From Octopus vulgaris (Eukaryota), in assembly GCA_951406725.2 (NCBI GenBank), contig OX597815.1, forward strand, positions 175,274,001 through 175,338,000: 64,000 bases of DNA, given 5' to 3'. The translations under genes were made by a program, and so were the position numbers. Shown here piece by piece: positions 4,827 through 63,625 of this stretch. The number at the start of each line of letters is the position of its first letter. Within the stretch, counting starts at the first letter, position 1. A model generated the notes under the pieces. The model was not told where the DNA came from and did no database searches. It saw nothing but the letters and a program-made list of their open reading frames with translations.

Positions 4827-6560
4827 TGTTAATAAAATATATGCATATATATAAACATATATGTACGTACCTACCTCTACATGTACATATACACGCATAT
4901 ATGTGTACAGGACACCAAAAGGACGTCGAACACATAGAGAGACGAAAAACATAGACACAAACCAAGGAACAAGACAAGCAAAAAAAAAAAAAAAAAAAAA
5001 AGGAGATACAGGACAATAAGCACAACGAAAAATCCCCTTCTTCAGTCGCTAAAGTTTCATCTACTAAACGTTTCAAAGGATAAAAGCGAGACGTATACTT
5101 CGAATGAAAAATTCCTTCCTGCGAAAAGCAAATCAATTAAAATTCTGAGATCTTGTCGCAGAGGGGTAAAAAAGCAAGACGGTAACGACAGTACAAACAT
5201 ATAAACAGTAAAAAATATATATATAAACAGTGGAAAAATAAATATATAACAGTGAGAGACGGGACAAGGAGAACAAGATAAGAAGGGCTGTTAACGCCAG
5301 ACGAAAAAAGTATTGCAAACGCTGGATTATAGTGGACGACGAGAGAGGAAGATGTCGACCAGTGGCCTTAGAAGGCAGGTGAGAAAAGACGGGATAGCAG
5401 TTACGACGGAAGTTCGTCGCAGATGGACGACGGGAATGGGGGAGAAGGAGCAAGAGGAAGAGAGAGAAGAAGGGGAATGGTGCGAGGAGACCATGAAGAA
5501 CAGTGAGGGGGAGAGTGAGAGGAAGAGACAAGTTAAGTGAGGGAAAAAAGACGAGAAAGGGAATGGGAGAGAAAGAAAGAAAGATGCAGAGTCGCGTGAG
5601 AGTTAATATCAAGGCGAACTTGATAAACAGAACAATCTTACTTAATAGGGTGCGTGCGTTTAGTCGTATAATATGTTAATAAAATATATGCATATATATA
5701 AACATATATGTACGTACCTACCTCTACATGTACATATACACGCATATATGTGTACAGGACACCAAAAGGACGTCGAACACATAGAGAGACGAAAAACATA
5801 GACACAAACCAAGGAACAAGACAAGCAAAAAAAGGAGATACAGGACAATAAGCACAACGAAAAATCCCCTTCTTCAGTCGCTAAAGTTTCATCTACTAAA
5901 CGTTTCAAAGGATAAAAGCGAGACGTATACTTCGAATGAAAAATTCCTTCCTGCGAAAAGCAAATCAATTAAAATTCTGAGATCTTGTCGCAGAGGGGTA
6001 AAAAAGCAAGACGGTAACGACAGTACAAACATATAAACAGTAAAAAATATATATATAAACAGTGGAAAAATAAATATATAACAGTGAGAGACGGGACAAG
6101 GAGAACAAGATAAGAAGGGCTGTTAACGCCAGACGAAAAAAGTATTGCAAACGCTGGATTATAGTGGACGACGAGAGAGGAAGATGTCGACCAGTGGCCT
6201 TAGAAGGCAGGTGAGAAAAGACGGGATAGCAGTTACGACGGAAGTTCGTCGCAGATGGACGACGGGAATGGGGGAGAAGGAGCAAGAGGAAGAGAGAGAA
6301 GAAGGGGAATGGTGCGAGGAGACCATGAAGAACAGTGAGGGGGAGAGTGAGAGGAAGAGACAAGTTAAGTGAGGGAAAAAAGACGAGAAAGGGAATGGGA
6401 GAGAAAGAAAGAAAGATGCAGAGTCGCGTGAGAGTTAATATCAAGGCGAACTTGATAAACAGAACAATCTTACTTAATAGGGTGCGTGCGTTTAGTCGTA
6501 TAATATGTTAATAAAATATATGCATATATATAAACATATATGTACGTACCTACCTCTACA

Positions 6561-8282: not shown

Positions 8283-8584
8283 ATCAAATTTCTGGATAAG
8301 CTTTCTTATTCATTTTACCTGGGAATTTCAAGAGAATGGAGATTGTATTCAGTCAGGTTGGTCTTGCATAGATTTTGTAGCTGTAAAATATTCATGCATG
8401 CAATTTTCAGAATTGTTTTATCATAAGAGAACCATTGTAAAAACATGAATATAATAAGGCAGTGCCCCAGCATGGCCACAGTCAAATGACTGAAACAAGT
8501 AAAAAATGATATTTAAAATGCCTGGTTCAGTGTTTTCTGCTGTTTTACAATTGGATTTATATTTTTCACTTTTGGTTTTGGCAG

Positions 8585-8788
8585 CCTTCAAATATCTTAT
8601 TTTCTAAAGATGGTTTAATAAAAGTCGGGGATTTTGGATTGGCAACAGCCATGACCAACTTTTTAGAGTCAGAAGCAAAAGTAACAGACGACTTGAAAGA
8701 AACAACAGACACTGAGGAATATGTAAATGTATCCTACAAACGACACACTGGTGGTGTGGGCACACAAATCTACATGAGTCCTGAGTTG
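8585..8788 (+). CDS. EIF2AK3: eIF2-alpha kinase (PERK-like), exon with DFG and activation loop
   Basis: CAG|...|GTAAG, 204 nt, phase 0. Translates PSNILFSKDGLIKVGDFGLATAM...RHTGGVGTQIYMSPEL, matching the eIF2-alpha kinase HT-x-x-VGT-x-x-YMSPE pattern. Confidence 0.92.
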
Positions 8789-9239
8789 GTAAGTTTTCCA
8801 CTTTTCTTTATTATCAAATAAGGATTTTTATAAATCAAGTGTGCAATTTCTCAAACTAAAGTTATAATTGCAATTTGCTTTGAAGTTCTAAGAGCAATTT
8901 TATCTGTAAATAAACTTCTTAAAAACTAAAAGGATAAAGATAATGCCTCTGAAAAGCAATTGCTGATAGTTATGGAATCTCGTAAAGTATTTATCGTTAG
9001 TGTCAGGTATTCAAGAAATGCAATTAAAATTCCAGTAGCAGTCAATCATTTTAATTTTAATACTATTTTGGTCGAGGTTTTGGAAAGCATGGTAGTTTTC
9101 TTAAAAGTTCTTCAGCTAATTCATGTCCACACACAACAGCAATTCTCGTCTGTTCTTTTATGGCAAAATGCCTTTTGTCTTTCTTTTCGGGAATTTTTGT
9201 CTCTGTTTTGATTTGTAAGTTTTTGATGATTTGTCGAGT

Positions 9240-28280: not shown

Positions 28281-29738
28281 CTGAAACAGAAAGTACAATC
28301 CCAAAAGTACTTTAGGATAAGAGGAGATAAAAATCACTGATGGCATTCAAAAGGTTCATAAAAGTTTAAAAAGTTTTTTTCTAAAATTCCACAGAACCAG
28401 TTGTGAAATTTCATTGCTTCTTTGCATTGTGGAGATTATCAGAATATAAACAGATTGAGAAAAGAAGTTAACAGGAAGTTTCTACTACAGAGGCCGGATG
28501 AAATCTGATACAAAAGACCAACAAGTGAATCCCAGGTAACCAATTTCAAGTCCTCAAGGAAGGAAGGGAAGTTGACTAAAATAATAATAATAATTTGAAC
28601 CAATTAAGTTGCAGAATCACACTGAAGAATTTTTCCTTTTGAGATAATCCTGAACTTTACCAGAATGTAAAACAGTTAAAAAAAAAAGCCTAAACAAAAC
28701 GAAAAAAACAAGTGAGCTCTGAACTTAGACAAATGCCCCAATATGCAAATAGCTGAAAGATGTGGGACGAAGTGGTGAGAAAGGATCTACAGACATTGAG
28801 ACTCAAAGAGGGGGTGACAGGGGACAAAGACTCCCGGTCGTTTGCTGTACTTGAAAAGACACATCAAGCTAAGTAAAAGCATGGTGGTCCTTGCATCATA
28901 CAGGCCGCTCCCTGCATCCCTAACCTTGCAGGTTCATTGGTGCTGGTGCCACATAAAAAGCACCTACATCACTGCCATGTAAATGCACCCATGCGGATGC
29001 TGCACAAAAGTGCTCAGCACACTCTGTAAATTGATTGGCATTAGGAAGGACATCCAGTTGTAGAGAAACCATGCCAAATTGGACTCAGCTGGAGCCTGGG
29101 CAGCTCTGGTCAGCTCCTCCTGCCAAACCGTCTAACCCATGCCAGCATGGAAAATGGGCATGAAATGATGATGATATATATAGACAAACACAGACACACA
29201 TACAATATATCAAGAACGTTAAATGACGATGATATATCCTATGCTGTTTGTGCCTGTGTTTCTCCCCCCCCCCCCACCGCCACTGCCTGACAATCTGAGA
29301 CGCTGCATTTACATCCCTGTAACTTAGGCCCATAGAAAAAGTACCAGGCTTAAAGAAAAAACAAAACAAATTAAGTCCTGGTGTCAATTCATTTGACTAA
29401 AGAGATGCTTCAAGGTGGTGCCCCAGTATGGCCACAGTCTAATGACTGAAAAAAGTAAAAGATAAAAGGTAAAATAATAATTACCGTTATTTGAATTTGC
29501 ATTTAGTTACATGGAAATATTAGCTTGCAATTTCTTAAACAACCCTTGAATTTCATCCTGTATTTGCATATTGGTTTCAAAATTTAGCACAAGGCCAGCA
29601 TTTTCAGGGGAGGGAGTAACTTGGTTACATCGATACCAGTGTGCAACTGGTACTTATTTTGATGGCCCCAAAACACTGAAAAGTAAGATGGATCTCAGCA
29701 GAATTTGAACTCAGAATATAAGGATGGATTGTTCAGCA

Positions 29739-30296
29739 TTTTACCTGGTCTCCTAATGATTTTTACCCGCCCAGCTAATGATTTCACCTGCTCTCCTAAT
29801 GATTTTTACCTGGTCTACTAATGATTTTCACCTGGTCTGCTAATTATTTTTACCTGGTCTGCTAATGCTTTTCATCTGGTCTGCTAATGATTTTTACCTG
29901 CCCAGCTAATGATTTTTACCAGGTCTGCTAATGATTTTCACCTGGTCTGCTAATGATTTTCACCTGGTCTGCTAATGATTTTCACCTGCTCTCCTAATGA
30001 TTTTTACCTGCTCTCCTAATGATTTTTACCTGCCCAGCTAATGATTTTTACCAGGTCTGCTAATGATTTTCACCTGGTCTGCTAATTATTTTTACCTGGT
30101 CTGCTAATGATTTTCACCTGGTCTGCTAATGATTTTCACTTGGTCTACTAATGATTTTTACCTGGTCTGCTAATGAATTTTACCTGCCCTGCTAATGATT
30201 TTTACCAGGTCTGCTAATGATTTTCACCAGGTCTGCTAATGATTTTCACCTGATCTGCTAATGATTTTTACCTGGTCTGCTAATGATTTTTACCTG
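29739..30296. repeat. Minisatellite, ~21-22-bp unit CTAATGATTTT(T/C)ACCTGGTCTG, about 26 copies
   Basis: Directly visible tandem array with minor unit variants and no spacers. Confidence 0.95.
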
Positions 30297-30969
30297 ACCT
30301 GACAGAAAACTCCTGGAGAGGTAGATGTAGTCGGTAGGCAAGTAAATTTGTTGCTGAGTGGTACTTGAATTAGATAAAGACAAGGATATTGCTTTCACCA
30401 AAGTTCTCAATGGTATGTGACACAGGAAAGCCAATCTGTATGAAAACCAAACAAATGAGTGCGGCTGAAAGAAATTCTGTTGTGTTTATGCAGTAAAGTG
30501 GAAGTTTTTTCAGCAGGACATCTGCAAATTTATTAGACATCCAGCAACTGACGAGAAGGCACACCTGTAATTTAATTTCCTGGTGTCAATTGCAGGTGTT
30601 GAGGTAGCATGTGAAGGTTTCAGGTGTTTGCTTGTTTAGCTGCAGCATTGCTCCATGTGTAACACCTGGAGTTTTGTTGCTGTGGCTTTGACAGTATGAA
30701 TGTATATTCTGCCCATGGGAAGGTTTGTATCCAATATTACAAGCCAAAATAAGATAAGGATCAATTATACAATGTCGTCCAATGGTTGATATTTACAAAG
30801 AGATAATCTGGACTATTGAAAGTGAAATGTCTTTTCTGGAAACACAAAATAACTGGGGGAAAAGGAATACATTTGAAAGACACTGTCAGACACTACTTGT
30901 GTGATATAATGTGGAGTTCATTTATAACTGTAGCATGATGCCCAGACAAGGAAACACACACATATATAC

Positions 30970-44909: not shown

Positions 44910-45724
44910 TTGGAAAAGTTGGAGGGGTATCGGAAAGCCTGCTCAGAGTTCAACTTTGCCATTTGTCCTTTCAGGTTGATAAATAAAGTATCAGTCCAAA
45001 GCGGTGCTCTGATAGAAGCGTTTTGAGTGTCAGACAGGATGTCTTGTGTTATTTGCTCTGGACCTATGCATTCTGAGTTCAAATCTTGATTTTGTTATCG
45101 GAATTAGTGGATTGTAACCAAAAGATAGAACCACTAATGGGGAAAAACAAAGGGAAAATAGTTTCCTTCATTCAATAGGAAGGTCAGCTGGCACCACCAT
45201 TAAAAGGTTGAACACACGTGTTATCACTTTAGCACAAGTGTGGCACAGCTTTAACATTAGTTGCTGGGAAACCTTGAATAAGCAGACTGATAATTAGAAA
45301 TATTTCAGGTAATTAGAAATATTTTGGAAAAGTTGGAGGGGTATCGGAAAGCCTGCTCAGAGTTCAACTTTGCCATTTGTCCTTTCAGGTTGATAAATAA
45401 AGTATCAGTCCAAAGCGGTGCTCTGATAGAAGCGTTTTGAGTGTCAGACAGGATGTCTTGTGTTATTTGCTCTGGACCTATGCATTCTGAGTTCAAATCT
45501 TGATTTTGTTATCGGAATTAGTGGATTGTAACCAAAAGATAGAACCACTAATGGGGAAAAACAAAGGGAAAATAGTTTCCTTCATTCAATAGGAAGGTCA
45601 GCTGGCACCACCATTAAAAGGTTGAACACACGTGTTATCACTTTAGCACAAGTGTGGCACAGCTTTAACATTAGTTGCTGGGAAACCTTGAATAAGCAGA
45701 CTGATAATTAGAAATATTTCAGGT
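44910..45724. repeat. Near-perfect tandem duplication, 414-bp period
   Basis: 44910-45310 equals 45324-45724, separated by the 13-bp filler AATTAGAAATATT. Confidence 0.93.
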
Positions 45725-47222: not shown

Positions 47223-48346
47223 TTCAACCGTGACCATTCCACCTTTTAAAAGATATTCAGAACAACATTATCCCATGTATCCCTAAGCTTTTTAAGACAG
47301 TCAAATGTGATTTGAAGGAGATTTGACTGTTATTTTTAGTAGGTTATGTGATCACACAGAGGTTCCCATGCTGTATTGATTAACTGAAGAGGACGATGTA
47401 GGATTTTCAGTAGAACTTGAAAAGTACATAAATCAATTTTTTACAGTAAAAACGAAGTCATTTTAAAGAACATTAAGGTTTACTTTGCAACTTTGTGACT
47501 TTCGCATGATTCATTCCATTATTTTTGCTTTACCAAATTAGAGAATGTTTAGGAGGATGTGAACATTATTTTCAAACGTGAAATGTGACAAAATAACTGT
47601 AATATTGATTCTACACAAGCTTGGTTTGTCTTCAGCTCAACTCTAGTATTATATTAACATATTACTTTTACTTGTTTCAGTCATATGACTGTGGCCCTGC
47701 TGGAGCACCACCTTTAGCCGAACAAATCGACCCCAGGACTTATTCTTTGTAAGCCTAGTACTTATTCTATCGTTCTCTTTTGCCGAATCACTTGTCAAGT
47801 GATGGGGGTGAGGGGCAAACACACACACACACACACATACATATATGACAGGCTTCTTTCAGTTTCCATCTACCAAATCCACTCACAAGGCTTTGGCCAA
47901 CCTGAGATTATTGTAGAAGACACTTGCCTAAGGTGCCACGCAGTGGGACTGAACCCAGAACCATGTGGTTGGGAAGCAAGCTTCTTACCACACAGCCATG
48001 CCTGTGCCTATTTATGTTTTGTTACTTTAATTGTTTAAACTTTGGTCGTCTTTTTTTGCAATGTGACACCATTAAAAGCGTAGAAGACAAATTTAACTTC
48101 TGGTGATTGTGTTGACTTGGAATACTTTGGAAAGAATCCACTACAATTTAATTATACATTCAGCTTTAAATAAATGAACAAGATCAGAAACTGTTTAATT
48201 GGCTTTGAATATGGAACAACATTACTGACACAACATGGATTGTTAAATCTTTAACCTGAATCCCGAGTGAATTGCAACCCAATTCCCAAATAAATAGTTG
48301 GGAACTGGGTTCCCAAATAAATGGCTTTAACAATCCCAATACTTAC

Positions 48347-48463
48347 TTTCAGCCGCACACTCTCTCTGTTTTCATATCCAACCCATTGATTTCCTCGGAC
48401 AAGGTAAGGGACTTGATGGTCATTATCCCAATGTCTCGACCATGATTTTTCTTCTAGGCATAT
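48347..48463 (-). CDS. GH18 chitinase exon (alpha/beta insertion domain)
   Basis: TAG|...|GTAAGT, 117 nt. Translates ICLEEKSWSRHWDNDHQVPYLVRGNQWVGYENRESVRLK. Confidence 0.93.
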
Positions 48464-48705
48464 CTACAACATCGAAATAAAAGAGAAATTTACTCATGTA
48501 GCTTTGGCACTAAGAAATTCACGTTTCTAGGAGAGACAGAAATTACTAGAACTGACAAAAATCAAAATGAATCTTAATGAGAGATGGAGAAAATCCACTT
48601 AGAGATAAATTCTTCAAATCAACAACTATTTCCATCGTTTCTGTTCCAAATTGATATGTCTCTTTCTAGTCAGCACATACTATTTTCGAATTGCTGCATT
48701 GAATG

Positions 48706-48735
<30 letters not shown>

Positions 48736-48737
<2 letters not shown>

Positions 48738-50645
48738 TAATAATAATAATGAAATTATTGTATACAGTGCTCAGGTGCACCACAACTTGTCAGAAAGTGC
48801 GTATAAATTGTATGCAGTAATGTACAAATGTCTGGAAAGCGAACAGTGTATGAGTCAGATCCATGCTTGCGTGTGTATGGAGGGGAGAAAATCAGGTGTA
48901 GTGTTGGCGAATCTCAGGAATCATGGAAGTTTTGAAGGATGCAGTGCTCCAACAACTAACAACTGATGCCGGCAGTTTGTTCCATGCTTCAGCAACTCTT
49001 AGCGTGAAAAAATGTTTCCGAAAGTCATGGGAGCTGTGCTGTTTTCTGACTTTGTAAATATGTCCACGGGTGTTAGACGGGTGAAGTTTGAAAAGGTGCT
49101 CAGAGTTATTGTTTGTAAGATGGTTAATAATTTTATGGGTGTCTGCCAAGTCAGCTGCCAGATGTCGGAATTTCAATGTGTCCATGCCCAGGGAAGTAAG
49201 GCATTCAGAATATGGCAAATGCCTGATGGAGGGTATTCTTTTGGTTGCAAGTCGCTGAACAGCTTCCAGACGATTAATATCCTGGACAAGATAGGGGTTC
49301 CAGACCGGTGATGCAAATTCCAGGTGAGGTTGTACCATAGCTATATAAAGCCGCAGATAGATAGCCAGAGAGCGGCTCACAAAGGACTTGGTAAGTGATG
49401 CCAAGACACCCTCAGCCTTCTTGGCAATTTTAGCGATGTGTTTTGTCCAACGCAAATCGCTGTCGACAATAACACCCAGGTCACGTTCACATGAAGACTG
49501 TTTGAGATGAGTGTTGTGGAGGGAGTAAGTAGACGCTGGGTTTTTCCTCCCAAAATGCATGGTGGTACATTTGTCCACAGCCAGCTTGAATTGCCAGTCC
49601 ATGATCCACTGCTGCATTGTGTTCAGGTCTGATTGCAATAGAGATCTATAGTGTACAGGATCTGACCTCTTTATTTCGAGGTACAGCTTGATGTCATCTG
49701 CATATTTCAGCACTGTGTCATTCTTTAAGTTGGCATCTATGTCATTAACATATGCAACAAATAAAAGGGGGCCAAGAACAGATCCCTGTGGTACACCAGA
49801 TGTCATCTCATAGGGTGAAGAGTGCTGTCCTAGAACAGTGACAACCTCTTTTCAGCTGAAAATAAAGGACTTCAACCAGTTATAGAGATCGTCTCTTACA
49901 CCCATTGCAGAGAGTTTCACCATAAGTCTTTTGTGTGGCACAAAGTTAAAAGCTTTAGCAAAGTCCAGGTAAACAACATCCACCCAGGATCCACGATCAG
50001 TAATTTGGGTAATGTCCTCAAGAAACAGCAGCTGGAGTTAGGAATAAATCCAAATTGTGACGGCTGGATGAGACTGTGAGACTTCCAGAAGTTCCAGGGG
50101 GATTCCCTGACAAAGGATTCCATCAGTTTGGCGATGCAGCTAGTAAGACTAACGAGGCGATAGTTGACAGGCAATGTGCGGTCACCTTTTTGAACAGAGG
50201 GGTAACACTGGCAATTTTCCACTGCTCTGGAGTAACACCGTTGTCAAGACAGAATTGGAAGAATAGTGAAAGTTGGCATAGAAGAAAGTACCCACCACGT
50301 TTGAGAAGTAGGCATGTAACACCATTGAGACCAGGAGAGGCATAGTTGCGTTTATTCTTAAGGTGGCGTTGTAGTATTGCTGGTGTAAATTTCATAGTAG
50401 ATACAGAGTCCGGTGTCAGAGGTGATGAAGATGGAACATTTTGGTCTTTGACAGTAAAGATGCCAGCATAGCATCCAGCAATGATTTCTGCACATTCTTT
50501 GGGATTGACAGTAATCTGCCCTGAGTGGGAATTGCAAAGGGGACCAACTGGAGAGTGAGGTCTCTGCTTTGAGTGTACATACTTCCAGAACACTTTGCTG
50601 TCAGGGTTGGTTGCTATGCGTTGTTCGAATTCAAGCACTGCCTTT
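48736..50645 (-). mobile_element. CR1-clade LINE, 5'-truncated, with (TTA)n tail
   Basis: ORF 48892-49806 has SGVPQGSVLGPLLF, YADD and HLEFASPVWNP. Upstream frames have NYRLVSLTS, QFGF and WKIASVTPLFKK. Confidence 0.92.
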
Positions 50646-50652
50646 TTTGTTA

Positions 50653-50717
<65 letters not shown>

Positions 50718-51150
50718 ATGTATATATATATATATAGATTTGCCATTTATCAGCTGTTGTTTGTTGGCTACCTATATTATTGTTATTATTATTCATTTTA
50801 TTAATGATAATAATAAATATCTATATAAATATTTTCAAATATTTATTCTTTAGTATACATATGTATGTGTGTGTGTGTCTGTATGCGCGTGCGTGCATAC
50901 ATTTGTGTGTGTGTGTGTACTCTTTTATTTGTTTCAGTCATTTGACTGCAGTCATGCTGGAGCACATCCTTTAGTCGAACAAATCGACTCCAGAACTTAT
51001 TCTTTGTAAGCCTAGTATTTATTGTATCGGTCTTCTTTGCCGAACTGCTAGGTTACAGTGATGTAAACACACCAACATTGGTTATTGGTTTTCAAGCAAT
51101 GGTGGGGTGACAAACACCAATGCACAACACACATATATATATATATATAT

Positions 51151-51560
51151 AGTTCAGTAAAAATTTAGATTCAGTTGAATATGGTACTTAAGTTAAAGGC
51201 ACCAGGATTTAGTATGGTATTATCCATATAATGCAAAATGGGATTATAATCAAAATAAGCAACAAGGATATCCAGAGGTAATGCAGTACGATCGTTTCAT
51301 GCAACTCTATTTAATTAAACAATGCAAGTTGATGAAACTTGTTTCTCTGTCTACCTACTTACCTTCTTTGTGATGTTGGTTAATGGAATAACTATAAAAT
51401 TGGATCTTTTAAATTTAACTAAATTCTATATTTTTATGCAGCTGAAGATTGCTCTACACTTTAAAACAGAGGTAATACTTGCATTGTTTAATTAAATGGA
51501 GTTGCATGAAACGATCGTACTGCATTACCTCTGGATATCCTTGTTGCTTATTTTGATTAT
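51151..51560. mobile_element. Short inverted-repeat element in (TA)n carrying a hammerhead-like motif (family A)
   Basis: 51246-51329 is the reverse complement of about 51477-51560. Same sequence as the termini of 54672-58258. Confidence 0.8.
51436..51525 (+). ncRNA. Candidate type I hammerhead ribozyme (family A)
   Basis: ATGCAG-CTGAAGA-[long stem/loop II]-GAAA-CGATCG-TA-CTGCAT: 6-bp stem I, intact core, palindromic stem III, GUA site. The first pair of stem II is non-canonical. Confidence 0.65.
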
Positions 51561-51778
51561 ATATATATATATATATATATACGATGGGATTCTTTCAGTT
51601 TCCGTCTACCAAATCCACTCACAAGACTTTGGTCAGCCCAAGGCTATAGTAGAAGACACTTGGCCATGCAATGGCACTGAACCCGGAGCCATGTTGTTGG
51701 GAAGCAAGCTTCTTACCACACAGCCATGCCTGTGTCTATATATATATACGTGTGTGTGTGTATGTACATATATATAGT

Positions 51779-52050
51779 GAAGGTGCATCGCTTAGTGGTT
51801 AGGGTGCTCCACTCACGATTGTGAGATTGTGGGTTCGATTCCCAGACTGGGTGGTGTATTGTGTTCTTGACCAAAGCATTTCATTTCACGTTGCTCTGCG
51901 ATCATTCCAACATCTGACATGTGGCACCCGTTGCACCTGTACAGGTAATGTCGATCTGATGGAGGGAGTGAGCCTATGTCTACACAAACATTTGATTACT
52001 GTAAACAAATCCATCTGTGTTGCTGTTTGGCAAAGCTGTAACTTTTGGAT
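51779..52050 (+). mobile_element. tRNA-derived SINE
   Basis: CGCTTAGTGGTTAG head and GGTTCGATTCCC B box followed by a non-tRNA body. Confidence 0.7.
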
Positions 52051-52389
52051 TACAATCCACATGCCCAGCTTCCATACAGTTTCCGTCAACCCAATTTCAC
52101 TGACAAGTATGGTTTGCTATCATATGGCTCTAGGAAATGACATTGGCCCATGACACTGCATTGTGGGATTGAATTCGAGACCTTTATAACAATTATATTA
52201 AGAAGATACGTGTCTGTGGAATACTCAGCCACTTATGTGTAAATTGAAATGCAGGTTATTCAGTTGATTAAACAACTGAATCCTATTCATCGAGTGATGG
52301 CGATCCCCCTCTCACACACACATGTACATACATACCTATGTATGTATGTATGTGTGTGTGTGTGTGTGTGTGTGTTCTCTTCTGTTTTT

Positions 52390-52695
52390 AATTATTCAAA
52401 TTCTTCCTCTGAAAAAGCAGTTGGATTCTAACAAAGATACAAAGCTCCATTGTTGGAATGTAGGATGACGAAAAGGGGTCACATTTTACACCTGAGAAAA
52501 GTCTTGCATATTGTTGTATCTGTTCCAATTACGGATTGTATTTGTAATGTAGGAGTCAGTCGGTTGATTTCTTTTTCTGAAATCCCTCGCTTATTCAGAT
52601 CGTCACTGAGGTATTTGCTCACCTAACCAAGTGCACCGATTATTATTGAATATATAAATATGAGCTTGTAATCTGGATATAGAAGCTGGAGATTA
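52390..52695 (-). mobile_element. 3' end of an RLE-type (R4/Dong-like) non-LTR retrotransposon
   Basis: Translates NLQLLYPDYKLIFIYSIIIGALG*VSKYL...LQIQSVIGTDTTICKTFL, typical of the C-terminus after the restriction-like endonuclease. Confidence 0.65.
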
Positions 52696-52933
52696 TGTGA
52701 TTATATATGTAAGTTTTGAAATTAAACCTATGAAGAGAATAACTCTTACTTGACGAATCACTCAAATTTTGGTAAATATTGTTCTCTTTCGAGTGGAAGA
52801 TGGAATATTTTGACATTACAAAGTATTAGTGGCACAAGTTGATTAAAATAGCGTTGACCAGGAACCAAAACCAATTCGTGAAGTCAGTTTCCTGTATATT
52901 TGTCATTTAACTAACTGTATTTACCGAAATATA

Positions 52934-54186
52934 ACAGATTGAGCAAAAAGTAAGCAACGTTTTGAACCATGAAGAATTTGTAACGGATTTTTGCAGAGTT
53001 TTGAATATTTTTAAACATTTTTTTGCAATTGTCTGATGATACAGACATAGTCTTGCTCAAATGCATCAATAAATTAACATTGATATTTTTTGTTGTTACG
53101 ATCATCAGAAATGAAACTGTCAAAGCGTGATATTCAAGCAATTTTGTTATTCAACTTCAAAAAGGGATGTAAAGCAGCTGAAACTGCTCGCGATATCAAC
53201 AGAATGTTTGGTGAGGAAATGACCAGTAAGTGGTCAGCTCAAAAATGGTTTAAATGATTTTGCCATGGAGACCTGAGCCTTGGAGATTGGGAGCATAGTG
53301 GATGGCCATTTGTCATCGATGAGATTGAGAAAGATCTGTGAAAAAACCACTCAAGAACTGGCAAAAGAACTTCAAGTTAGCCTGGAAACTGCCTGCAACA
53401 ATTTGCATGTGATCGGAAAATTAGAAAAGCTCGACAAATGGCTATCACACAATCTGAATGAAAATCAGAAAATGCGCAGATATGAAGTTTGCTTGTTGCT
53501 TCTTCTCCGTGACCAGACCAATCCATTTCTGGTCCATATTGTAACTTGCGATGAAAAGTGGATTCTGTACAATCATAAAAAACGTTCTTCACAGTGGTTG
53601 GACTAAAATGAAGCATCGAAAAACCTTCCCTAAACCCAAGCTCTTCAAAAAGGTTATGGTAACTGTTTGGTGGTGTACTGCGGGCTCACCCACTACAACT
53701 TCTTAAAACTCAGAAAAACGATTACTGCAGAAATATATTGTCATGAAATTGCCAAAATGAATGACAAATTGCTATTCCTCCATCCCAGACTGGTCAACAG
53801 AAGAGGGCCAATCATTTTTCATAACAATGCTCGACCACATGTTTCACTAATGACGCTTTAGAAGTTGAAGGGACTTGGCTACGGAGTTCTTCCCCACCCA
53901 GCTTATTCCCCAGACCTTTCTCCTACTGACTACCACTTTTTCCAGCACCTCGATGGTTTCCTACGAGAGAAGGAGTTCAAAAATCAAACCGATGCTGAAA
54001 GTGCATTCAAAGAGTTCATCAACTCCAGAACTCCAGATTTTTATGTTACCAGAATAAACAAACTTGTTGGCAAAAATGTGTCGATTGTAATGGTGCTTAC
54101 TTTGATGAATAAAATTTCCGCATTGTTGAAATATATTGTGATGAATTTCATGTTTCAAAACGTTGCTTACTTTTTACTCAGCTGGA
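52934..54186 (+). mobile_element. Full-length decayed mariner (DD34D) transposon
   Basis: TIRs of about 40 bp (..GAGCAAAAAGTAAGCAACGTTTTGAACCATGAA / TTCATGTTTCAAAACGTTGCTTACTTTTTACTC..) with TA flanks. Transposase from ATG 53111 has IVTCDEKWILY, HNNARPH and YSPDLSPTDYHFF, with stops and frameshifts. Confidence 0.95.
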
Positions 54187-54207
54187 TACAAATCAAACAG
54201 AACATAC

Positions 54208-54393
54208 TTCCTGATAAGACATAACGCCAGATGAATGTATTATGGATCCCGGATTTCCTGCTCTTGCTGCTGGTGCCATCATACCATTAAGCTGGCCATC
54301 GACTAATGTAAATGATCGTCCGTAGAATGGTATTCCCATAATAAGTTTGTTTGCAGGAGCACCCTTTGACTTCCAATAAGTAACAGCATAATC
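54208..54393 (-). CDS. GH18 chitinase exon
   Basis: TTTAG|...|GTATGT, 186 nt. Translates DYAVTYWKSKGAPANKLIMGIPFYGRSFTL...GVMSYQE. Confidence 0.95.
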
Positions 54394-54705
54394 CTAAATT
54401 AAGAAGGAATATATGAAAAAAGCTGTTGAAGAAAAGGCAAAAATAAAGGAGCTCTTACCTCAAGAAGAAATCAAAACACAGAATCTAGCTTCATTTGAAA
54501 AGGATCAACAAAACTCGTTAGTCGTACCTACATGGGAACAGTGCCTCAATCTCTGGCTAAAAAAACTATTCCCTCTCGGAGATCATTTCCACACGTCTGT
54601 TCTCCATGACATCTGACATCCACTAGATCTCTCTGTTTTCTAACTCAATAATATATATACATATATATATATAATCAAAATAAGCAACAAGGATATCCAG
54701 AGGTA

Positions 54706-54795
54706 ATGCAGTACGATCGTTTCATGCGACTTCACTTAATTAAACAATGCAAGTATTACATCAGTTTTAAAATGTAGAGCAATCTTCAGCTGCAT
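54706..54795 (-). ncRNA. Candidate type I hammerhead ribozyme (family A, second copy)
   Basis: Minus strand reads ATGCAG-CTGAAGA...GAAA-CGATCG-TA-CTGCAT. Confidence 0.65.
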
Positions 54796-55710
54796 ATGGA
54801 ATTTTTAGTTAAATTGAAGGAGAATAAAATCTTTTAAAATTTCTATAACTATTACATAAATTCCATATATCTAATAAAGTTATTAAGTTGTATACTTAAT
54901 CTACAATAAGTTTTAAGGAATTGGTAATTTCCATATCTATTTCTGCAAGAATTCTACTACACTGAATTCCCCCCCTCTCCCTTCTTTTTTTTAACTATTA
55001 CCCCTAACTGGCCTAAATTATTATGCCCCATATAAACCATACTTCATTCTTGAATACTAAATTTAAATATTCCTAATTCTAAGAACTTTCATCTTGGTTA
55101 CCTCCCTTCCATTATATTTTAAAATATTTTAAAGGTTTTTTTTTTTGATATGTGTGCTAATTAATACCTTATTTGCTAGTAATATTCTCATAAAAAGTTC
55201 TTCTAAATCCGCTTAATTAATATTCAAAACCTGATAATGAATAGATAATAATATTTTTATAATGGTCTTATTAGTAATAAAATTTTTAACCAATAGTTTG
55301 ATAATTTCTTCACCCGATATTAAACACTAATCTTACACGACAACTCCCATGATAAATGAATATTAAATTTAGTCTAGTAATTATAAAATTATAATGCAAT
55401 TATTAAGTATTTTCTTATAGCAGCTTACCTAGCCTATTATAAAATAAGCTAGGTACATCCTATAATAAGTTTTTAGAATGCAAATCTAGTCTACCCCTTA
55501 TCTACTATATTCTAAAATAATTTTATTTTACAATTTGCTGATTTAAATTTCCTTCACTAAAATTTTAAACCATTTTTTCTTACTCATTTACCCACTATAT
55601 CATCTTGCTCATAATACATTTCTATTAGATTCACACTTAACCTATACAGAACCATACTGCTATAATTCACTCTCTATTTTATAGCACAAGTAAATACATT
55701 CTAAAGTCAT

Positions 55711-57154
55711 TATTTTATTTATTTATTTTATCTAGTTTCAGCTCATGAGCTGTGGCCATGCTGGGGCACCGCCATTTGGTGTTGCTACATGATTTTACTT
55801 CACGAATGCTTTTTAGCAACTGCCATTTAGTGCATGAGAGAGTTCGATGCAGCTGCCCTCATCTGCACCTCCTGCCATGAAGTTGGTTCATCTGGGACAC
55901 CTGACAGGAAGAGATCCAGTCCTATTTTAAAGACATCTGCATCCACCCCATGCAGGTCCCTCAGGTTCTTCGGGAGGATATTGAAGAACTGTGGGACTCT
56001 GAAGCCCAGGCTATCACAGTATCTTGTCCTACATCTTGATGGCAAATTTGGAGTCCTTGGCACCACGCAGTGGCGCCCAGTTCTGGCATTTGCGTAACTC
56101 TCAATGCCAAAGTTTGGGACAAGTCCTTCTAGGATCTTCCAGATGTATATTATGGCATATCTTTCTCACCTACGCTCTAAGGAATAGAGTCTTAATCTCT
56201 TGAGTCTTTCCCAGTAGCTTATATGCTGCACAGAGGCTATCTTCTTCGTGTAGCTTCGTTGGATCGCCTCAAGTTCTGTGATCAACTTGACATTGGATGG
56301 TGACCATAGCTGAGAGCAATAGTCAAAGTGGCTTAGGACAAGTGTCCTCCAGAGGACCATCATGGTTTCCTGGTCTCTTGTTCTAAAGGTTCTAAGAATC
56401 CAACCGGCCAGCTGCCTACATTTCATTGCCAATTTAGCAACATGTACATGAAAGGTTGCGTCATCACTCATGTAAATACCCAGGTCACACACTGATTGTG
56501 CCTCTGGGATTGCAATCCCTCCAGGTCCAGTGTATTCATTGGGTATTGCATTTAGTTTTGCATGCTGATAGCATAAAGCTTGAAACTTTTCAGCATTGAA
56601 CTGCATGCTATTCTTTTCAGCCCACTTGTATATTTTGTCCAGCTCACATTGCAGGTGCTTAATGTCTTCAGGGTTCTGTATTACCTGTGAAACTTTTGTA
56701 TCATCTGCATAACTTGTGATCGTGGCTCTCTGCATGGCTGAGGGCATGTCTGAGAGGGCCATTATGAAAAGTAGTGGTCCCAAAACAGTGCCCTGTGGAA
56801 CACCGCTCACTATATGCGTGTTAATGGAAGTGGCCCCATTGGCTACTACCACCTGACTTCTATCCTTCAGAAGTCATGAAGCCATTCTCCCAATTTTCCA
56901 ACTATGCCAAGATCACGCAGTTTGTGACATATCATCCATGATCGACTTTATCAAAAGCCTTTGCAAAGTCGAGATATATCACTTCCACATTTGAGTGGTT
57001 GAGCAGTCGTTTCAGCACCCAGTCATAGTGTTGTAGGAGCTGAGTTAAGCAGCTTCTTCCTGGACGGAAACCATGTTGCGTGTCAGGCAGCATGTCATTT
57101 TCTTCAAGGAAGGTGATTAGTTTCCTTCTGACTATTCGTTCCATGACCTTGCTG
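55711..57154 (-). mobile_element. Second CR1-clade LINE family, 5'-truncated
   Basis: QHGFRPGRSCLTQL, YLDFAKAFDKV, SGVPQGTVLGPLLF, YADD. (TAAAA)n-like tail. Candidate TSD AAGTCAT at 55704-55710 and 57155-57161. Confidence 0.92.
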
Positions 57155-57525
57155 AAGTCATGACCTTGCTGCATTAACATGCCGAAAATAAATGAAATGT
57201 CTAGCATATTCCTTTAATTTAACTCATTAATACCAATAAATTACTATTTACTAATTAACTATAAATTTATATTAATTTGATTTATATTTATATAAATATG
57301 AAATTATTTCTATATTCTCCATCCCTATATTGTATAAGGCACTAAAATTATTAGAATCCTTTGGGAAAAACTATCTAAAAGATACCTATTTATTTCAAAT
57401 CACAAGTAGGATTATGGATGTTAAATAGTTAAGTATTGGAAGTTTTCTATTCTCCCTACCCCATCAGCTTTGGCCTACTAATTTTACCTGAAATACATTC
57501 AACTGTACCAGAAGAAATTCTTTAA

Positions 57526-57730
57526 CCCTTTCGTTACTAACCTGGCTCTGGCTCTGTAATATAAGTTTTCATAAGTTTTGAATTAAAATCTTCCACCAAA
57601 CCTTATTCACAATTACTGTTCCTATCACTAGCTTAATGATAACTAAGTTATTTTACAAAATTCTTTGTTATATTTAAAATTAATTGAAAGAAACACAGAA
57701 CATCTCAAAATAAATACAGTAATGAAAGGG
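57526..57730. mobile_element. piggyBac-type MITE
   Basis: TTAA|CCCTTTCGTTACT ... AGTAATGAAAGGG|TTAA. Confidence 0.85.
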
Positions 57731-58035
57731 TTAAAGAGAGTTTGATTTATGGCTCTGCTACCTAAACTGTCTCTTCCTCTATCTATAATAGATAGATTCT
57801 TGGTGTTGTCTCCACTAGACCTGATATACTAGTCCTAAACCCCCTCCCCCAATAGTAAATCTAAATAACAAATGTAAATTCAGTGATAAGTAGTGTATCC
57901 GTGAATAAATATCATTTACTACCATGTTTCTGTTGATGAGACTGGTCTCTCTGTCTATCTACTTACTCTCTTTGTGATGTTGGTAAATGGAATAAGTATA
58001 AAAATGAATCTTTTCAATTTAACTAAAAATTCCAT

Positions 58036-58125
58036 ATGCAGCTGAAGATTGCTCTACATTTTAAAACTGATGTAATACTTGCATTGTTTAATTAAATGAA
58101 GTCGCATGAAATGATCATACTGTAT
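58036..58125 (+). ncRNA. Candidate hammerhead ribozyme (family A, third copy)
   Basis: ATGCAG-CTGAAGA...GAAA-TGATCA-TA-CTGTAT; stem III is changed but still palindromic. Confidence 0.55.
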
Positions 58126-58359
58126 TACCTTTGGATATCCTTGTTGCTTATTTTGATTATAATCACCCCATTTTGAATTATATGGATAATACCATACCAA
58201 ATTCTGGTACCTTTAACTTAAGTACCATATTCAACTGAATCTAAATTTTTACAGAACTTATATATCATATATATATATTGATAGAAATGGTAAGACAACA
58301 AAAGAATGAAAGAGACCTCGATATTATGTAAATAGCGGAATTTATCTGTAAATGTAATA

Positions 58360-58537
58360 TGTGACAATTATTCGGTAGCCATGATAAAACTCCGAGTTTC
58401 GGATGTCGGGATGGAAGTCCATGCCGCCATCTCTTCAGTTATCCAGCCATCGGAAAAAATGCAGAGATGGTGGCATGGATTTCCACCCTGACATCCGAAA
58501 CTCGGAGTTTTATCATGGCTACCAAATAATTGTCACA
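58360..58537. repeat. Inverted repeat, ~74-bp arms (family B element)
   Basis: TGTGACAATTATTCGGTAGCCATGATAAAACTCCGAGTTTCGGATGTC... versus ...GACATCCGAAACTCGGAGTTTTATCATGGCTACCAAATAATTGTCACA. Confidence 0.9.
58383..58443 (-). ncRNA. Candidate type I hammerhead ribozyme (family B)
   Basis: GATAA-CTGAAGA-GATG.CGG.ATGGA(CT)TCCAT.CCG.CATC-C-GAAA-CTCGGAG-TT-TTATC. Confidence 0.6.
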
Positions 58538-58543
58538 CACAGC

Positions 58544-58564
<21 letters not shown>

Positions 58565-58575
<11 letters not shown>

Positions 58576-58889
58576 TTGGGGAAGGCCAGTTCATGGGATT
58601 ACCTTAAGTTTCTCGTCCATAAAGGGCTTAGCTTTATGGTGCATCATCATTCCCCAAAAAACCTGTTGGCACATGGCCTCTTAAAAATATGGCCGCATTT
58701 GTACATATTTACAGAAACCAGTGGTCTGTCATAAATATAGAATGATTTGACTTTGGCTACTCCACTAAAAAGAGATATTTTTAAGAGGTCATGGGCCAAG
58801 AGGTTTTTGGGATCTGGCGATACGCCATAAAGGTAGACAGGAAACATAAGGTAATCCCATAAACCGTCCTTCCCCAATTTTAATATATA
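58565..58889. repeat. Inverted repeat, ~120-bp diverged arms with degenerate hammerhead-like cores (family C element)
   Basis: 58565-58690 versus 58775-58889. Cores are ATGATGA...GAAA (-) and CTGGCGA...GAAA (+). Confidence 0.8.
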
Positions 58890-59403
58890 CTGCTTTACAT
58901 CTTAGAGTGTGCTTCTTTCGGATTTATGTTTTTTTACAAACAATATATATATAGAAGACACACACACACATGCATGCGCACACATACATGCACACACATA
59001 TACATGCAGACACACACACACACACAAGTATGAGTGTGGGTATCTTTCATCGACATGTATTACTGTTTATCGGGAAAACTGCTGCTCTTCAAATGAAATT
59101 CTTTTCTAAGTTACAAATGTTTCTTTGTCACCTCATGATCAGAAATGAAGTGAACCAGCAATCGGTCAATTAGAAGTTTCGAAACAACTACATTATTGTT
59201 CACAAACTGCAATATAAAATACACAAATATATGAATGGAACAAATGTTTTAATCAGAGAACTGTTTCGCACTGGTGAAGAGATGTGGACATCGAGTTTAT
59301 AGCATTACCTTAATCCAGAGAAAGTTAAAATAAAGCATTTTTCAAAATAAACTGCTTCCATTAATTGAATAAGAACTTGAAAAGTTTTCTGCTTATAACT
59401 CAC

Positions 59404-59527
59404 CACATTGAGATATTGTCTTCCATTGGCCTCTCCTTTCTTTGAATACAATGGGGAGAGGTGTCCTGTCAGTTTCTCCCATGAACCATGGAAATCGTAT
59501 GTCATCAATAGTATGTAATCTACAGTC
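59404..59527 (-). CDS. GH18 chitinase exon (MTYD motif); upstream catalytic exons not found in the window
   Basis: AAG|...|GTGAGT, 124 nt. Translates TVDYILLMTYDFHGSWEKLTGHLSPLYSKKGEANGRQYLNV. Confidence 0.95.
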
Positions 59528-61249
59528 CTTTAAGAAAAAATAATTTTAAAATCTGTATATATAATTTTACTTACAGAATACACACACACGCACACACGCG
59601 CATGCTCACACACACACACATGCATACACACACAGACACACACACATACATAATTGATAGAAAATGGAATGAACAACATTCTTCATTTAAAAACACTACA
59701 ATTGTTTCGACATATTTTTGCACCCATAGCACATTGGTGAGACGGTTCAAATCCAGTCTCTTGCTATCAGCGATTACACGATAGACAAAGTGGTGTATTA
59801 CCATTCCGGTATAGAAGAGGTACACTGTACCAAAACCGTTACAGATAGTTAAACCCATACGTACAATGGAAGAAAAAGGAAGAACACAGAGTTCCTAAAA
59901 ATAAACGCCAAAAAGGAAAAAATATTAAGTTGTACAAATGAAAAAAAAAAGAAAAAGCTAAAAGAAGGGAGGTAGGGGTGAATAAGGTAAAATAAAATTA
60001 CTTACTCCCAAAAATGAAAAAAATTAAAGGGGGAGATGTCGTAGTGGAAATGGTACACCCATCCCATGGAACAAGTGCATCTATTCACATACACACACAT
60101 CCGAGTGATGGAGTAGTCACTGCAGATATATATATATATATATATTGTGCGTTTCATACAGCATTAAGGGTTTTAACTCTTATTTTTTGCAATATAGGTA
60201 CTATTTAGCACCTGTAGTCACAATTAATCACGATTATATATATATATATATTGTCAATTCAAATAAATGAACAATAAAATTAACAATAAGAAACGGCAAG
60301 ATAATGTGCACAAGGAATGTAGTAGTTTGACACTCAACAAAAAGAGAGTTTTTCACACTTCGAGCGTAGCTATTTCTCGGAAAGGAAAAAGGGAAAAGTC
60401 CAAAGAAGGAAAAGAAATCGCCAACAGCACATGTGTGTGTATATCTATATGAATGAGTGGAAAAATACAAAAGAAAAAGGCACTCAACACATTTAGTAGG
60501 AGTCACATGTATTATTGCTTAAAACGGTTTGATTTAGTTTCATGCGACTTCGTAGGCTTTCTTTGGTGCACGTGCATATATGGATGAGCATACATGGGTG
60601 AGTGTGTGCGTGTACATGTGTGTATGAGCCTATCTGCATGTGGGTGTAGGTGTGTACTCTGTTGCATTTGTGTATAAACTATGATGGGTGTATGCGTGCT
60701 TGCATGCCTGCACCCAGTGCTCACAATTGCCAACTCTGCCACCGTGAAAGACTGATCATCCTCCATCAACAGGAAATATGAACCATCCTATTGCTGGCAA
60801 CAGAGGTACGCCCTCCTCGTGAACTACTGGCTGTCGACGACCCAGATATACCACCTTAACTTTGGCCGCTCCCCAACTCTAACTGCTCCATAGCCAAGGA
60901 CTGGGTACCCAACCACCAATGCCTATGCAGACCACAGACTGACTCCACAACCTTATACCTCCCCTACAACACCTACTTTTGCCTCCAAAAACGTGGTGTG
61001 CGCATATGAACACTCATGCAAACTTCTGTGTATCCACGCCCACATACATACACACACACATGCATACCACTAGTAACACACCCACGTCCACGTATTCATG
61101 CATTTCATACACACACACACAATCACCGGCCTTGCTTCTGCTGCCCCCCACCTCTGCAGACACTTGGTCCCCATCGGTTTCCTGCCAGCCACGCGGTCCA
61201 AGAAATTCTTTTATCTAGTGGAACTGTTATTGTTGAATCGTTGATTTTA

Positions 61250-62699: not shown

Positions 62700-63625
62700 G
62701 GATCCTATAGCTTAATTATTTTTGGTGAAAATTTAAAAGTTGAAAGAAATTTGTGTCTACAGGTAATTATAACGTCAGCTATCTTATTATGTAAACTATT
62801 TTTGTTGGCTCGAATTATGTGGATCGCCTCCTTCCTGCATAAATCACAATTCTTTGTGTGTGTATTACGATGGTGTGGCTTCCCTTATTATAGACCAATT
62901 CAGACTGAATTCTTTATTGTTCATTTTTAATTTATTGACGTAGGTTGCTAGTGTGGTTGAATTTTTTGTTTCGTGGTTAATGAAAGTGTTTATATGTGCC
63001 CTGTATCTACTGTTAAAGTCAATTGTACTACTTATGTAAATCATTTTAGGTTCATTTAAGGTTGAGACTTCAACATTATATATGGTATTTCTCCTTAAAC
63101 AGAAACCTTTAAGGGGACAAAGCTCCCTATTACGACAATTACGTGTTTTTATTTTATTTCTGGGTTTAGTCTTACTATTTTTAATATCCATGTTCTTATT
63201 ATTGTTCTTCGTGTTAGGGTCAGCTGAGTTATCTCTATTGGTTTCGTTATTTCTAAGTTTAAGTCTATTATTTGCTGTGATGATAGATTCAAGATTGGGT
63301 GTGGTAGAATAAGATAATTTAAGACAGGATCTATTAAATATAGAATGGTATTTATAATCTGGTGGGAAGTTCCAATTGATAATGCTAAAAAATAACTTAG
63401 GGAGGTTTCTTACCTGGAGGGAGAAGTGAAGTGGGGGTTTGAACTATACAATTACCCGTTTTCTCCCTGAATTGTTCTTACTCTGACCCGTATGGGTATT
63501 GCTATATTTGAAAAACCTATAGTGTCTTCTAAAGTGTTGGTTTCTATATTCGGTGGGGTTATTCATAGGATGTGTGTCGATATTAGAATCTGCAATATTT
63601 GGAAACTGTTTGCCTAATTTGTTTA
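62700..63625 (-). mobile_element. Penelope-like element fragment (linker and GIY-YIG endonuclease), decayed
   Basis: RKRVIV*FKPP, FPPDYKYHSIFNRSCLKLSYSTTPNL, NCRNRELCPLKGFCL..TIY..IYISST.DFNSRYRAH..STTLATYV..WSII. Confidence 0.85.

Follow-up and report, generated by a model that had tools for sequence, protein, structure and literature searches.

The 64,000-nucleotide (nt) stretch of the Octopus vulgaris genome analyzed here, called the window below (assembly GCA_951406725.2, contig OX597815.1, positions 175,274,001 to 175,338,000 of the forward strand), contains a chitinase gene on its minus strand. The chitinase-3-like protein of Octopus bimaculoides maps exon by exon through the window, and one exon of 58 residues is 93% identical to that protein and matches Glyco_hydro_18 of Pfam (E 3.9e-9). 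This exon lies between two inserted elements, one short and one long, which occupy neighbouring introns of the gene and carry copies of a motif resembling a hammerhead ribozyme. Both elements are very probably dead, 5'-truncated insertions of a Penelope-like element (PLE) of the Hydra clade, and the motif is likely the self-cleaving hammerhead of the PLE pseudo-long terminal repeat (pLTR).

Each insertion consists of two arms in opposite orientation (Table 1). An earlier note on this DNA had described these as inverted terminal repeats (ITRs) of a family with short and 3.6-kb forms, which bears a 90-nt motif in three full copies and one half copy, such that transcripts from either strand would carry a ribozyme. 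The half copy and the (TA)n-flanked inverted arms are present, but the arms are unequal, with a tail of about 100 nt on one arm only. The motif is exact at 51436 (+) and 54706 (-); the copy at 58036 deviates in stems III and I (TGATCA in stem III; CTGTAT as the 3' strand of stem I, with one G-U pair) through changes of the CpG type. A ribozyme on transcripts of either strand holds for the long element but not for the short one, whose minus arm lacks the CUGAAGA half. The arms of the short insertion overlap by 2 nt (GT) at 51328-51329, while the inverted arm of the long insertion is 96.6% identical to 58013-58161. The "3.6-kb form" is a composite, into which a fragment of a long interspersed nuclear element (LINE) and a TTAA miniature inverted-repeat transposable element (MITE) arrived later; another copy in the genome (locus L033) has empty sites for both, and with the two removed, the element proper is about 1.9 kb. 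From its motifs, we take the LINE fragment to be CR1-like, and the MITE is presumably of the piggyBac type. The AT-rich body of the element holds no coding remnant on either strand in a tblastn search with an intact 980-residue open reading frame (ORF) of a sister family (E<=1), and no tandem monomer arrays of the element occur within the window.

Table 1. Chitinase exons and parts of the two insertions, in window coordinates, with the leader of sister families
Feature	Position	Strand	Remarks
Chitinase (GH18) exon between the insertions	54208..54393	-	Protein mapping and Pfam
Flanking chitinase exons	59529-59404 and 48463-48347	-	Protein mapping
Short insertion, inverted arm	51151..51329	-	pLTR 3' half and ~95-nt tail ('long' end) abutting (TA)n
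Half hammerhead in short insertion	51281-51329	-	Without CUGAAGA
Short insertion, forward arm	51328..51561	+	Final ~230 nt of the 3' region of the PLE; (TA)n follows its 'short' end
Complete hammerhead motif	51436..51525	+	Predicted cut after A51519
Long insertion, inverted arm	54670..54818	-	149 nt of pLTR, 'short' end into (TA)n
Complete hammerhead motif	54706..54795	-	Predicted cut after A54712
PLE 3' untranslated region, first part	54819..55712	+	
Later insertion, 5'-truncated LINE	55713..57171	-	RVT_1 E 1.9e-11; 5-nt target duplication; not PLE
PLE 3' untranslated region, second part	57172..57525	+	
Later insertion, MITE	57526..57730	.	Terminal inverted repeats and TTAA duplication; not PLE
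PLE 3' end	57731..58262	+	pLTR and ~100-nt tail ('long' end) into (TA)n
Hammerhead motif, decayed	58036..58125	+	Stem III still palindromic; predicted cut after A58119
Folded ~200-nt leader with AUG-pairing helix (predicted)	Loci L178, L184, L213, L218, L223, L229		

The pattern CTGAAGA-N(40-70)-GAAACGATCG matches the window at 51442-51517 (+) and 54789-54714 (-) and is never matched in 100 shuffles. The CUGANGA, GAAA, and UH core is present and kept, and genome-wide, patterns of core plus stem III give 538 and 2376 matches, with 0 in controls. Within a set of 36 copies found via the element body or its endonuclease (EN) rather than picked by the motif, the core is intact in 31. Variants shared by a lineage fall at 0 of 11 core positions versus 49 of 168 flank or loop positions (p 0.037); for private variants the figures are 7 of 396 and 148 of 5979 (p 0.5). 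The comparison of core with flanks, by which the earlier note had proposed to judge the ribozyme, needs care because dead copies decay equally in both: the changes shared by lineages avoid the core, while private changes hit core and flank alike. Selection on masters followed by decay of their copies would leave such a pattern, and as far as sequence comparison reaches, the hammerhead is kept in the master lineages.

Pairs of stems I and II covary across genome-wide copies, a check that had also been proposed. Two subfamilies differ by a compensatory change from C-G to U-A in stem I. At the first three positions of this stem, which lies outside the search pattern, 28 of 30 can pair over 10 stem types (19 on average in shuffles that ignore relatedness; p 1.3e-4), and in at least six families, a stem I strand can mostly pair only with the partner from its own family or from a close relative. 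An alignment of 10 motifs shows double-sided change in 10 of 22 predicted pairs. The self-duplex of the palindromic stem III is predicted at -10.0 kcal/mol (variants, -5.8 to -7.2), and the variants remain self-complementary.

Like minimal type I hammerheads, the motif has the core, a short stem I, a palindromic stem III suited to dimers, and an extra base after A9, and it occurs as dispersed single copies and as opposite-strand pairs 100-700 bp apart. The earlier assignment to this PLE-type class, inside inverted PLE ends, stands. The stem II region is much longer here, and the closing pair G10.1-C11.1, highly conserved in that class and present in some sister families, is absent, with U-U instead. 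Over 196 motif matches (duplicates included), the first stem II pair is UU in 103, AU in 41, GU in 39, GC in 7, and other in 6. Such a U-U, which had been thought unusual, is found in the majority of Hydra-clade hammerheads listed in File S2 of PMC8557442; these read ctgatga-t-tgcc...ggca-t-gaaa. The large stem II had been thought unusual as well. It is indeed longer than in published Hydra examples, with 57-60 nt between CUGANGA and GAAA versus loops II of 3-10 nt in File S2, but this spacing is common to the intact sister families, and stem II spans 22 to 70 nt across motif families. Set against the published examples in that source, nothing in the structure of the motif is new except the long stem II.

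The identity of the element was read from longer copies. Walking upstream from the type of body found in the window leads, in other copies, to a GIY-YIG EN with a CxCX5C linker, and the 3' untranslated region at 54819..55712 directly follows this EN. The Pfam match to GIY-YIG in family copies reaches only E 0.011, below the cut-off. Reverse transcriptase (RT) is attached in a sister subfamily of the same family (L092/L095, in which RT and EN pieces are collinear), and these RT pieces are 72-73% identical to the intact 980-residue sister ORF. The order in the family is RT, CxCX5C linker, GIY-YIG EN, a 3' region of 0.9-1.9 kb, and hammerhead, the latter lying within the pLTR and sense to the ORF. 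The DKG motif is changed to DKT, both in a family copy (PADKTG in L095) and in 6 of 7 sister ORFs. RWK is found in 2 of the 7, the rest reading RWR, RWA/RWS, or RWI; no N-terminus was obtained for the family itself. The CxCX5C linker together with CxxC/CxH around E and N is present in L054, L095, and 7 of 7 sister ORFs, and a CCHH motif, read by eye, is absent from the EN. DKT, the linker, and the EN without CCHH are traits of the Hydra clade (Penelope-1_HM to -18_HM and Hydra-1_Obim; PMC8557442), whose members have a single ORF with RT followed by GIY-YIG, DKT, RW(K), the CxCX5C linker, CxxC/CxH around conserved E/N without CCHH, a (TA)n target, and a sense 3' hammerhead in which one U follows the core and another precedes GAAA. 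A Neptune/Nematis label was considered and dropped: the linker is CxCX5C rather than CX2-5CxxC, CCHH is missing, and the motifs agree with those given for Hydra in section 11 of PMC8557442.

Searching the genome at the protein level yielded 7740 candidates, and among the 150 scored, many have open frames of 800-1090 residues. ORFs of 936-1091 residues are present in 7 of the 20 long regions retrieved. In four of these (L209-L211 and L220), direct repeats that each bear a hammerhead flank the ORF, and a further inverted copy often precedes them. The intact sisters have the form pLTR-ORF (976-1091 residues)-pLTR and measure 4.6-4.7 kb from pLTR to pLTR in four cases and 3.5 kb in L204. The ORFs of L209-L214 and L220 are intact and have a long Asn-rich linker, and their repeats are 98-99.8% identical, which suggests recent activity of these sister families. 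The exact family of the window appears to be extinct, with live-looking sisters remaining.

Additional hammerhead-like motifs with other palindromic stem III sequences (L016, L042, L094, L111, and L220) point to further PLE families; the pattern used for them gave 1 match in 3 shuffles of 570 kb. The link between motif and ORF is shown for families fetched by RT. A comparison of six motif families with ORFs within 1.5 kb upstream gave 1 antisense match in 60 loci and, given the long 3' regions, is uninformative. At L021-L023 (G000:C29, ~24.63 Mb), a family end fragment with an intact hammerhead is part of a 460-bp tandem repeat of three units. The period includes unrelated sequence, and the array could give a natural dimer. 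Near the end of the window, 62868-63443 (-) holds part of a different PLE that has a CxCX5C linker and a GIY-YIG-like EN; it is 30% identical to the protein P0007, and no hammerhead was found beside it.

A genome search with the end region gave 1530 candidates, of which 40 were scored. The 3' ends of the fetched loci lie at two points about 100 nt apart and mostly run into (TA)n; of 114 matches reaching the end, 51 are short, 39 long, and 24 other (overlapping loci counted twice). The 5' junctions are scattered over 17 points between reference positions 186 and 462, with only 2 of the 17 at a single spot in stem II. In 12 of 13 unique head-to-head pairs, one end is short and one is tailed (binomial ~0.001-0.002, calculated by hand, with L049 and L058 counted once and the long element of the window included). 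Target duplications are unreadable inside (TA)n. An inverted 5'-truncated copy with a tail at one end only is likewise described for the Hydra clade in PMC8557442.

Several observations weigh against this reading of the elements and their motif. No Rfam hammerhead model matches 48000-61000 at E<=10, so that the Rfam search suggested earlier came back empty; the models missed the motifs here owing to the long stem II. The three complete copies fold no better than shuffles (z -1.6, -0.08, and -0.59), the 51436 copy with its flanks prefers another hairpin, and the hammerhead fold of the monomer is 2-6 kcal/mol above the minimum-energy fold. Mutating the hammerhead of an Anolis PLE left insertion in vitro unaffected, and the cut site showed no RNA ends (PMC11167929). 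The family (family A) yielded no complete copy that has a 5' pLTR and the start of the ORF, and the long untranslated-region subfamily of the window was seen joined to EN and linker but not to the RT core. Neither the RT pieces nor a full-length relative is recognised by Pfam (P0007 and P0008 were uninformative), and the assignment to the Hydra clade goes by motifs and sequence identity.

The first of these points bear on the idea that the hammerhead is a vestige, inactivated by the long stem II insertion and the U-U pair, whose sequence is kept for promoter function, protein binding, or the like. The weak folding of the monomer is consistent with this, as are the low or protein-dependent activity of PLE hammerheads, which are dispensable in vitro (PMC4209133, PMC11167929), and the suggestion of Craig et al. 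(PMC8557442) that hammerheads may simply parasitise PLEs. A core free of lineage-shared change, a compensatory change in stem I, and a stem III that stays self-complementary argue the other way, and U-U is typical of the clade. A vestige is unlikely, and the motif is likely a self-cleaving hammerhead, as judged from these sequence comparisons.

The earlier note had instead proposed a non-autonomous ribozyme retroelement family; this would be a retrozyme-like element with true ITRs, in short and long forms, moved in trans by a PLE. Most copies do lack coding sequence, no ORF remnant is left in the body of the window element, and a full-length family-A master was not found. However, the same 3' region is directly joined to EN and RT coding sequence in longer copies, 5' ends are continuous and their junctions scattered, the arms are unequal and vary between copies, and the window lacks tandem monomers. 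This proposal is largely refuted and very improbable. The non-LTR retrozymes (bioRxiv 10.64898/2026.07.22.740005) share with the octopus elements a type I hammerhead and a relation to PLEs, but they are non-coding tandem units with a hammerhead in each, whereas the copies here are dispersed and truncated from a coding element.

An effect on the host gene was also implied by the earlier note, in that the hammerhead at 54706 is sense to the chitinase pre-mRNA and about 310 nt before an exon; the distance measured is 313 nt. This copy might cleave the pre-mRNA and so regulate or damage the gene, perhaps with the half copy at 51281-51329 as a substrate across the exon. Its core is intact, and on paper, enzyme and substrate halves can pair (-6.2 and -11.0 kcal/mol). 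The copies at 51436 and 58036 are antisense to chitinase, and every sense arm has a near-perfect antisense arm earlier within the same intron. The predicted duplexes between the arms are -229 and -138 kcal/mol versus -14 for the hammerhead fold. Cleavage of the pre-mRNA is unlikely because transcription reaches the antisense arm before the sense arm, and the two are predicted to pair; each sense hammerhead would thereby be tied up. The copies also look like neutrally decaying repeats. Thus, ribozyme action on chitinase is highly improbable, and the insertions are probably inert passengers in the gene. Finally, the inverted ends and TA flanks like those of Tc1/mariner would suggest a DNA transposon or MITE with terminal inverted repeats that look like hammerheads by chance. 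This idea is refuted by the linked RT and GIY-YIG sequences, the lack of a transposase, the covarying stems, and unequal arms whose two ends are both retroelement 3' ends of two lengths, and its likelihood is next to nil.

For a truncated Hydra-clade PLE, the arrangement of the ends has a candidate mechanism in published biochemistry: AT-rich DNA is cut on both strands by a PLE protein, which begins reverse transcription from two sites inside the RNA, and these define the tail (PMC11167929). In octopus, the element's protein would bind a read-through RNA spanning the pLTR and leader and would cut both strands of a TA repeat. Reverse transcription would be primed on each cut strand, one at each of two internal start sites, and the two truncated cDNAs would join back to back via a few bases of microhomology, giving the apparent ITRs. 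The hammerheads would act as dimers, joined through the 8-nt palindromic stem III and probably assisted by protein, and their cleavage would trim the precursor RNA and free the folded leader. Minimal PLE hammerheads cut weakly and as dimers (PMC4209133), and that of the Anolis PLE needs protein and is dispensable in vitro (PMC11167929). This element, Poseidon_Ac, resembles those described here in having two fixed insertion ends that define a tail, an AT-rich target, and a hammerhead in the pLTR. It belongs to a different clade, and its ORF starts inside the hammerhead, whereas here a leader of about 200 nt separates the cut site from the AUG.

In full-length sisters, the tail makes up the first half of this leader, and insertions of the sister families stop at the two homologous positions. 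For the window's family, the second leader half was not found, and a search for its 5' leader gave 8 matches, all from a sister lineage at 76-85% identity. Four non-redundant leaders (of 8 distinct among 17 found) have fold z-scores of -3.9 to -8.6, and two further leaders have -3.7 and -1.2. In the predicted consensus fold, the start codon is paired in a 13-bp helix (12-13 bp) with bases that immediately follow the cut site. Each insertion end falls in unpaired sequence, with a hairpin a few bases further on. Covariation in the leader is thin, with few pairs in four sequences and none double-sided in the AUG helix, and the folded leader is a lead rather than a result. It is a tentative and rather doubtful idea that the hammerhead heads a control module of about 200 nt, in which the cut would leave an uncapped 5' end that pairs with the start codon and the hairpins would mark the two RT starts.

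The clade itself is not new to octopus: the published family Hydra-1_Obim has a different hammerhead (PMC8557442), so the suggestion of an element undescribed in this lineage does not hold, although the motif, together with the string GSSDSAE, is absent from the portions of the PMC8557442 supplement that were available. The element is very probably a new family of the known Hydra clade, set apart from published members as they appear in that supplement. Octopus sisters of 4.6-4.7 kb contrast with a clade generally below 3 kb, a tendency rather than a diagnostic trait, and their ORFs of 976-1091 residues with an Asn-rich linker are unlike those published. The tail is about 100 nt versus 30-40, and stem III is an even 8-nt palindrome, unlike that of published members. 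Octopus PLEs have been annotated in bulk in PMC13282606, whose main text, where accessible, mentions neither hammerhead nor ribozyme. In the titles and abstract openings searched, octopus PLE hammerheads appear only in Craig 2021, and no AUG-pairing PLE leader appears. Repbase or Dfam may hold the family, as may the supplements of PMC13282606, PMC4209133, and PMC11167929; its absence from published work is judged from other sources.

Other repeats and genes share the window. Right after the long element, 58360-58540 and 58570-58890 are two TA-flanked inverted-repeat elements, possibly other head-to-head stubs or MITEs; the former is a near-perfect hairpin with below-threshold miRNA matches in Rfam. 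A decayed transposase remnant with WILY, CDEKW-like, and HPAYSPDLSP motifs, presumably of the mariner type, lies at 52870-54180 (+) in the same intron as the short element. Elsewhere are a protein kinase exon of another gene at 8510-8818 (+) (Pfam Pkinase, E 2.3e-6, below the cut-off), pieces of a LINE RT ORF at 2-1390 (+), which we take to be RTE-like, a 22-bp tandem array at 29694-30387, and near-perfect tandem duplications of 414 bp and 832 bp at 44910-45623 and 4983-6114, respectively.

For chitinase regulation, the finding is unlikely to matter. Its meaning lies with the elements: it adds to the octopus genome an uncatalogued, large-bodied lineage of Hydra-clade PLEs with thousands of hammerhead motifs, and the sisters with near-identical pLTRs and intact ORFs provide a system in which to study the purpose of PLE hammerheads and the origin of inverted ends. 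If the control module were real, one RNA switch would couple cleavage, translation, and two-sided priming and would explain why one end is short and the other long. A functional leader would be an RNA signal for internal initiation by a telomerase-related reverse transcriptase.

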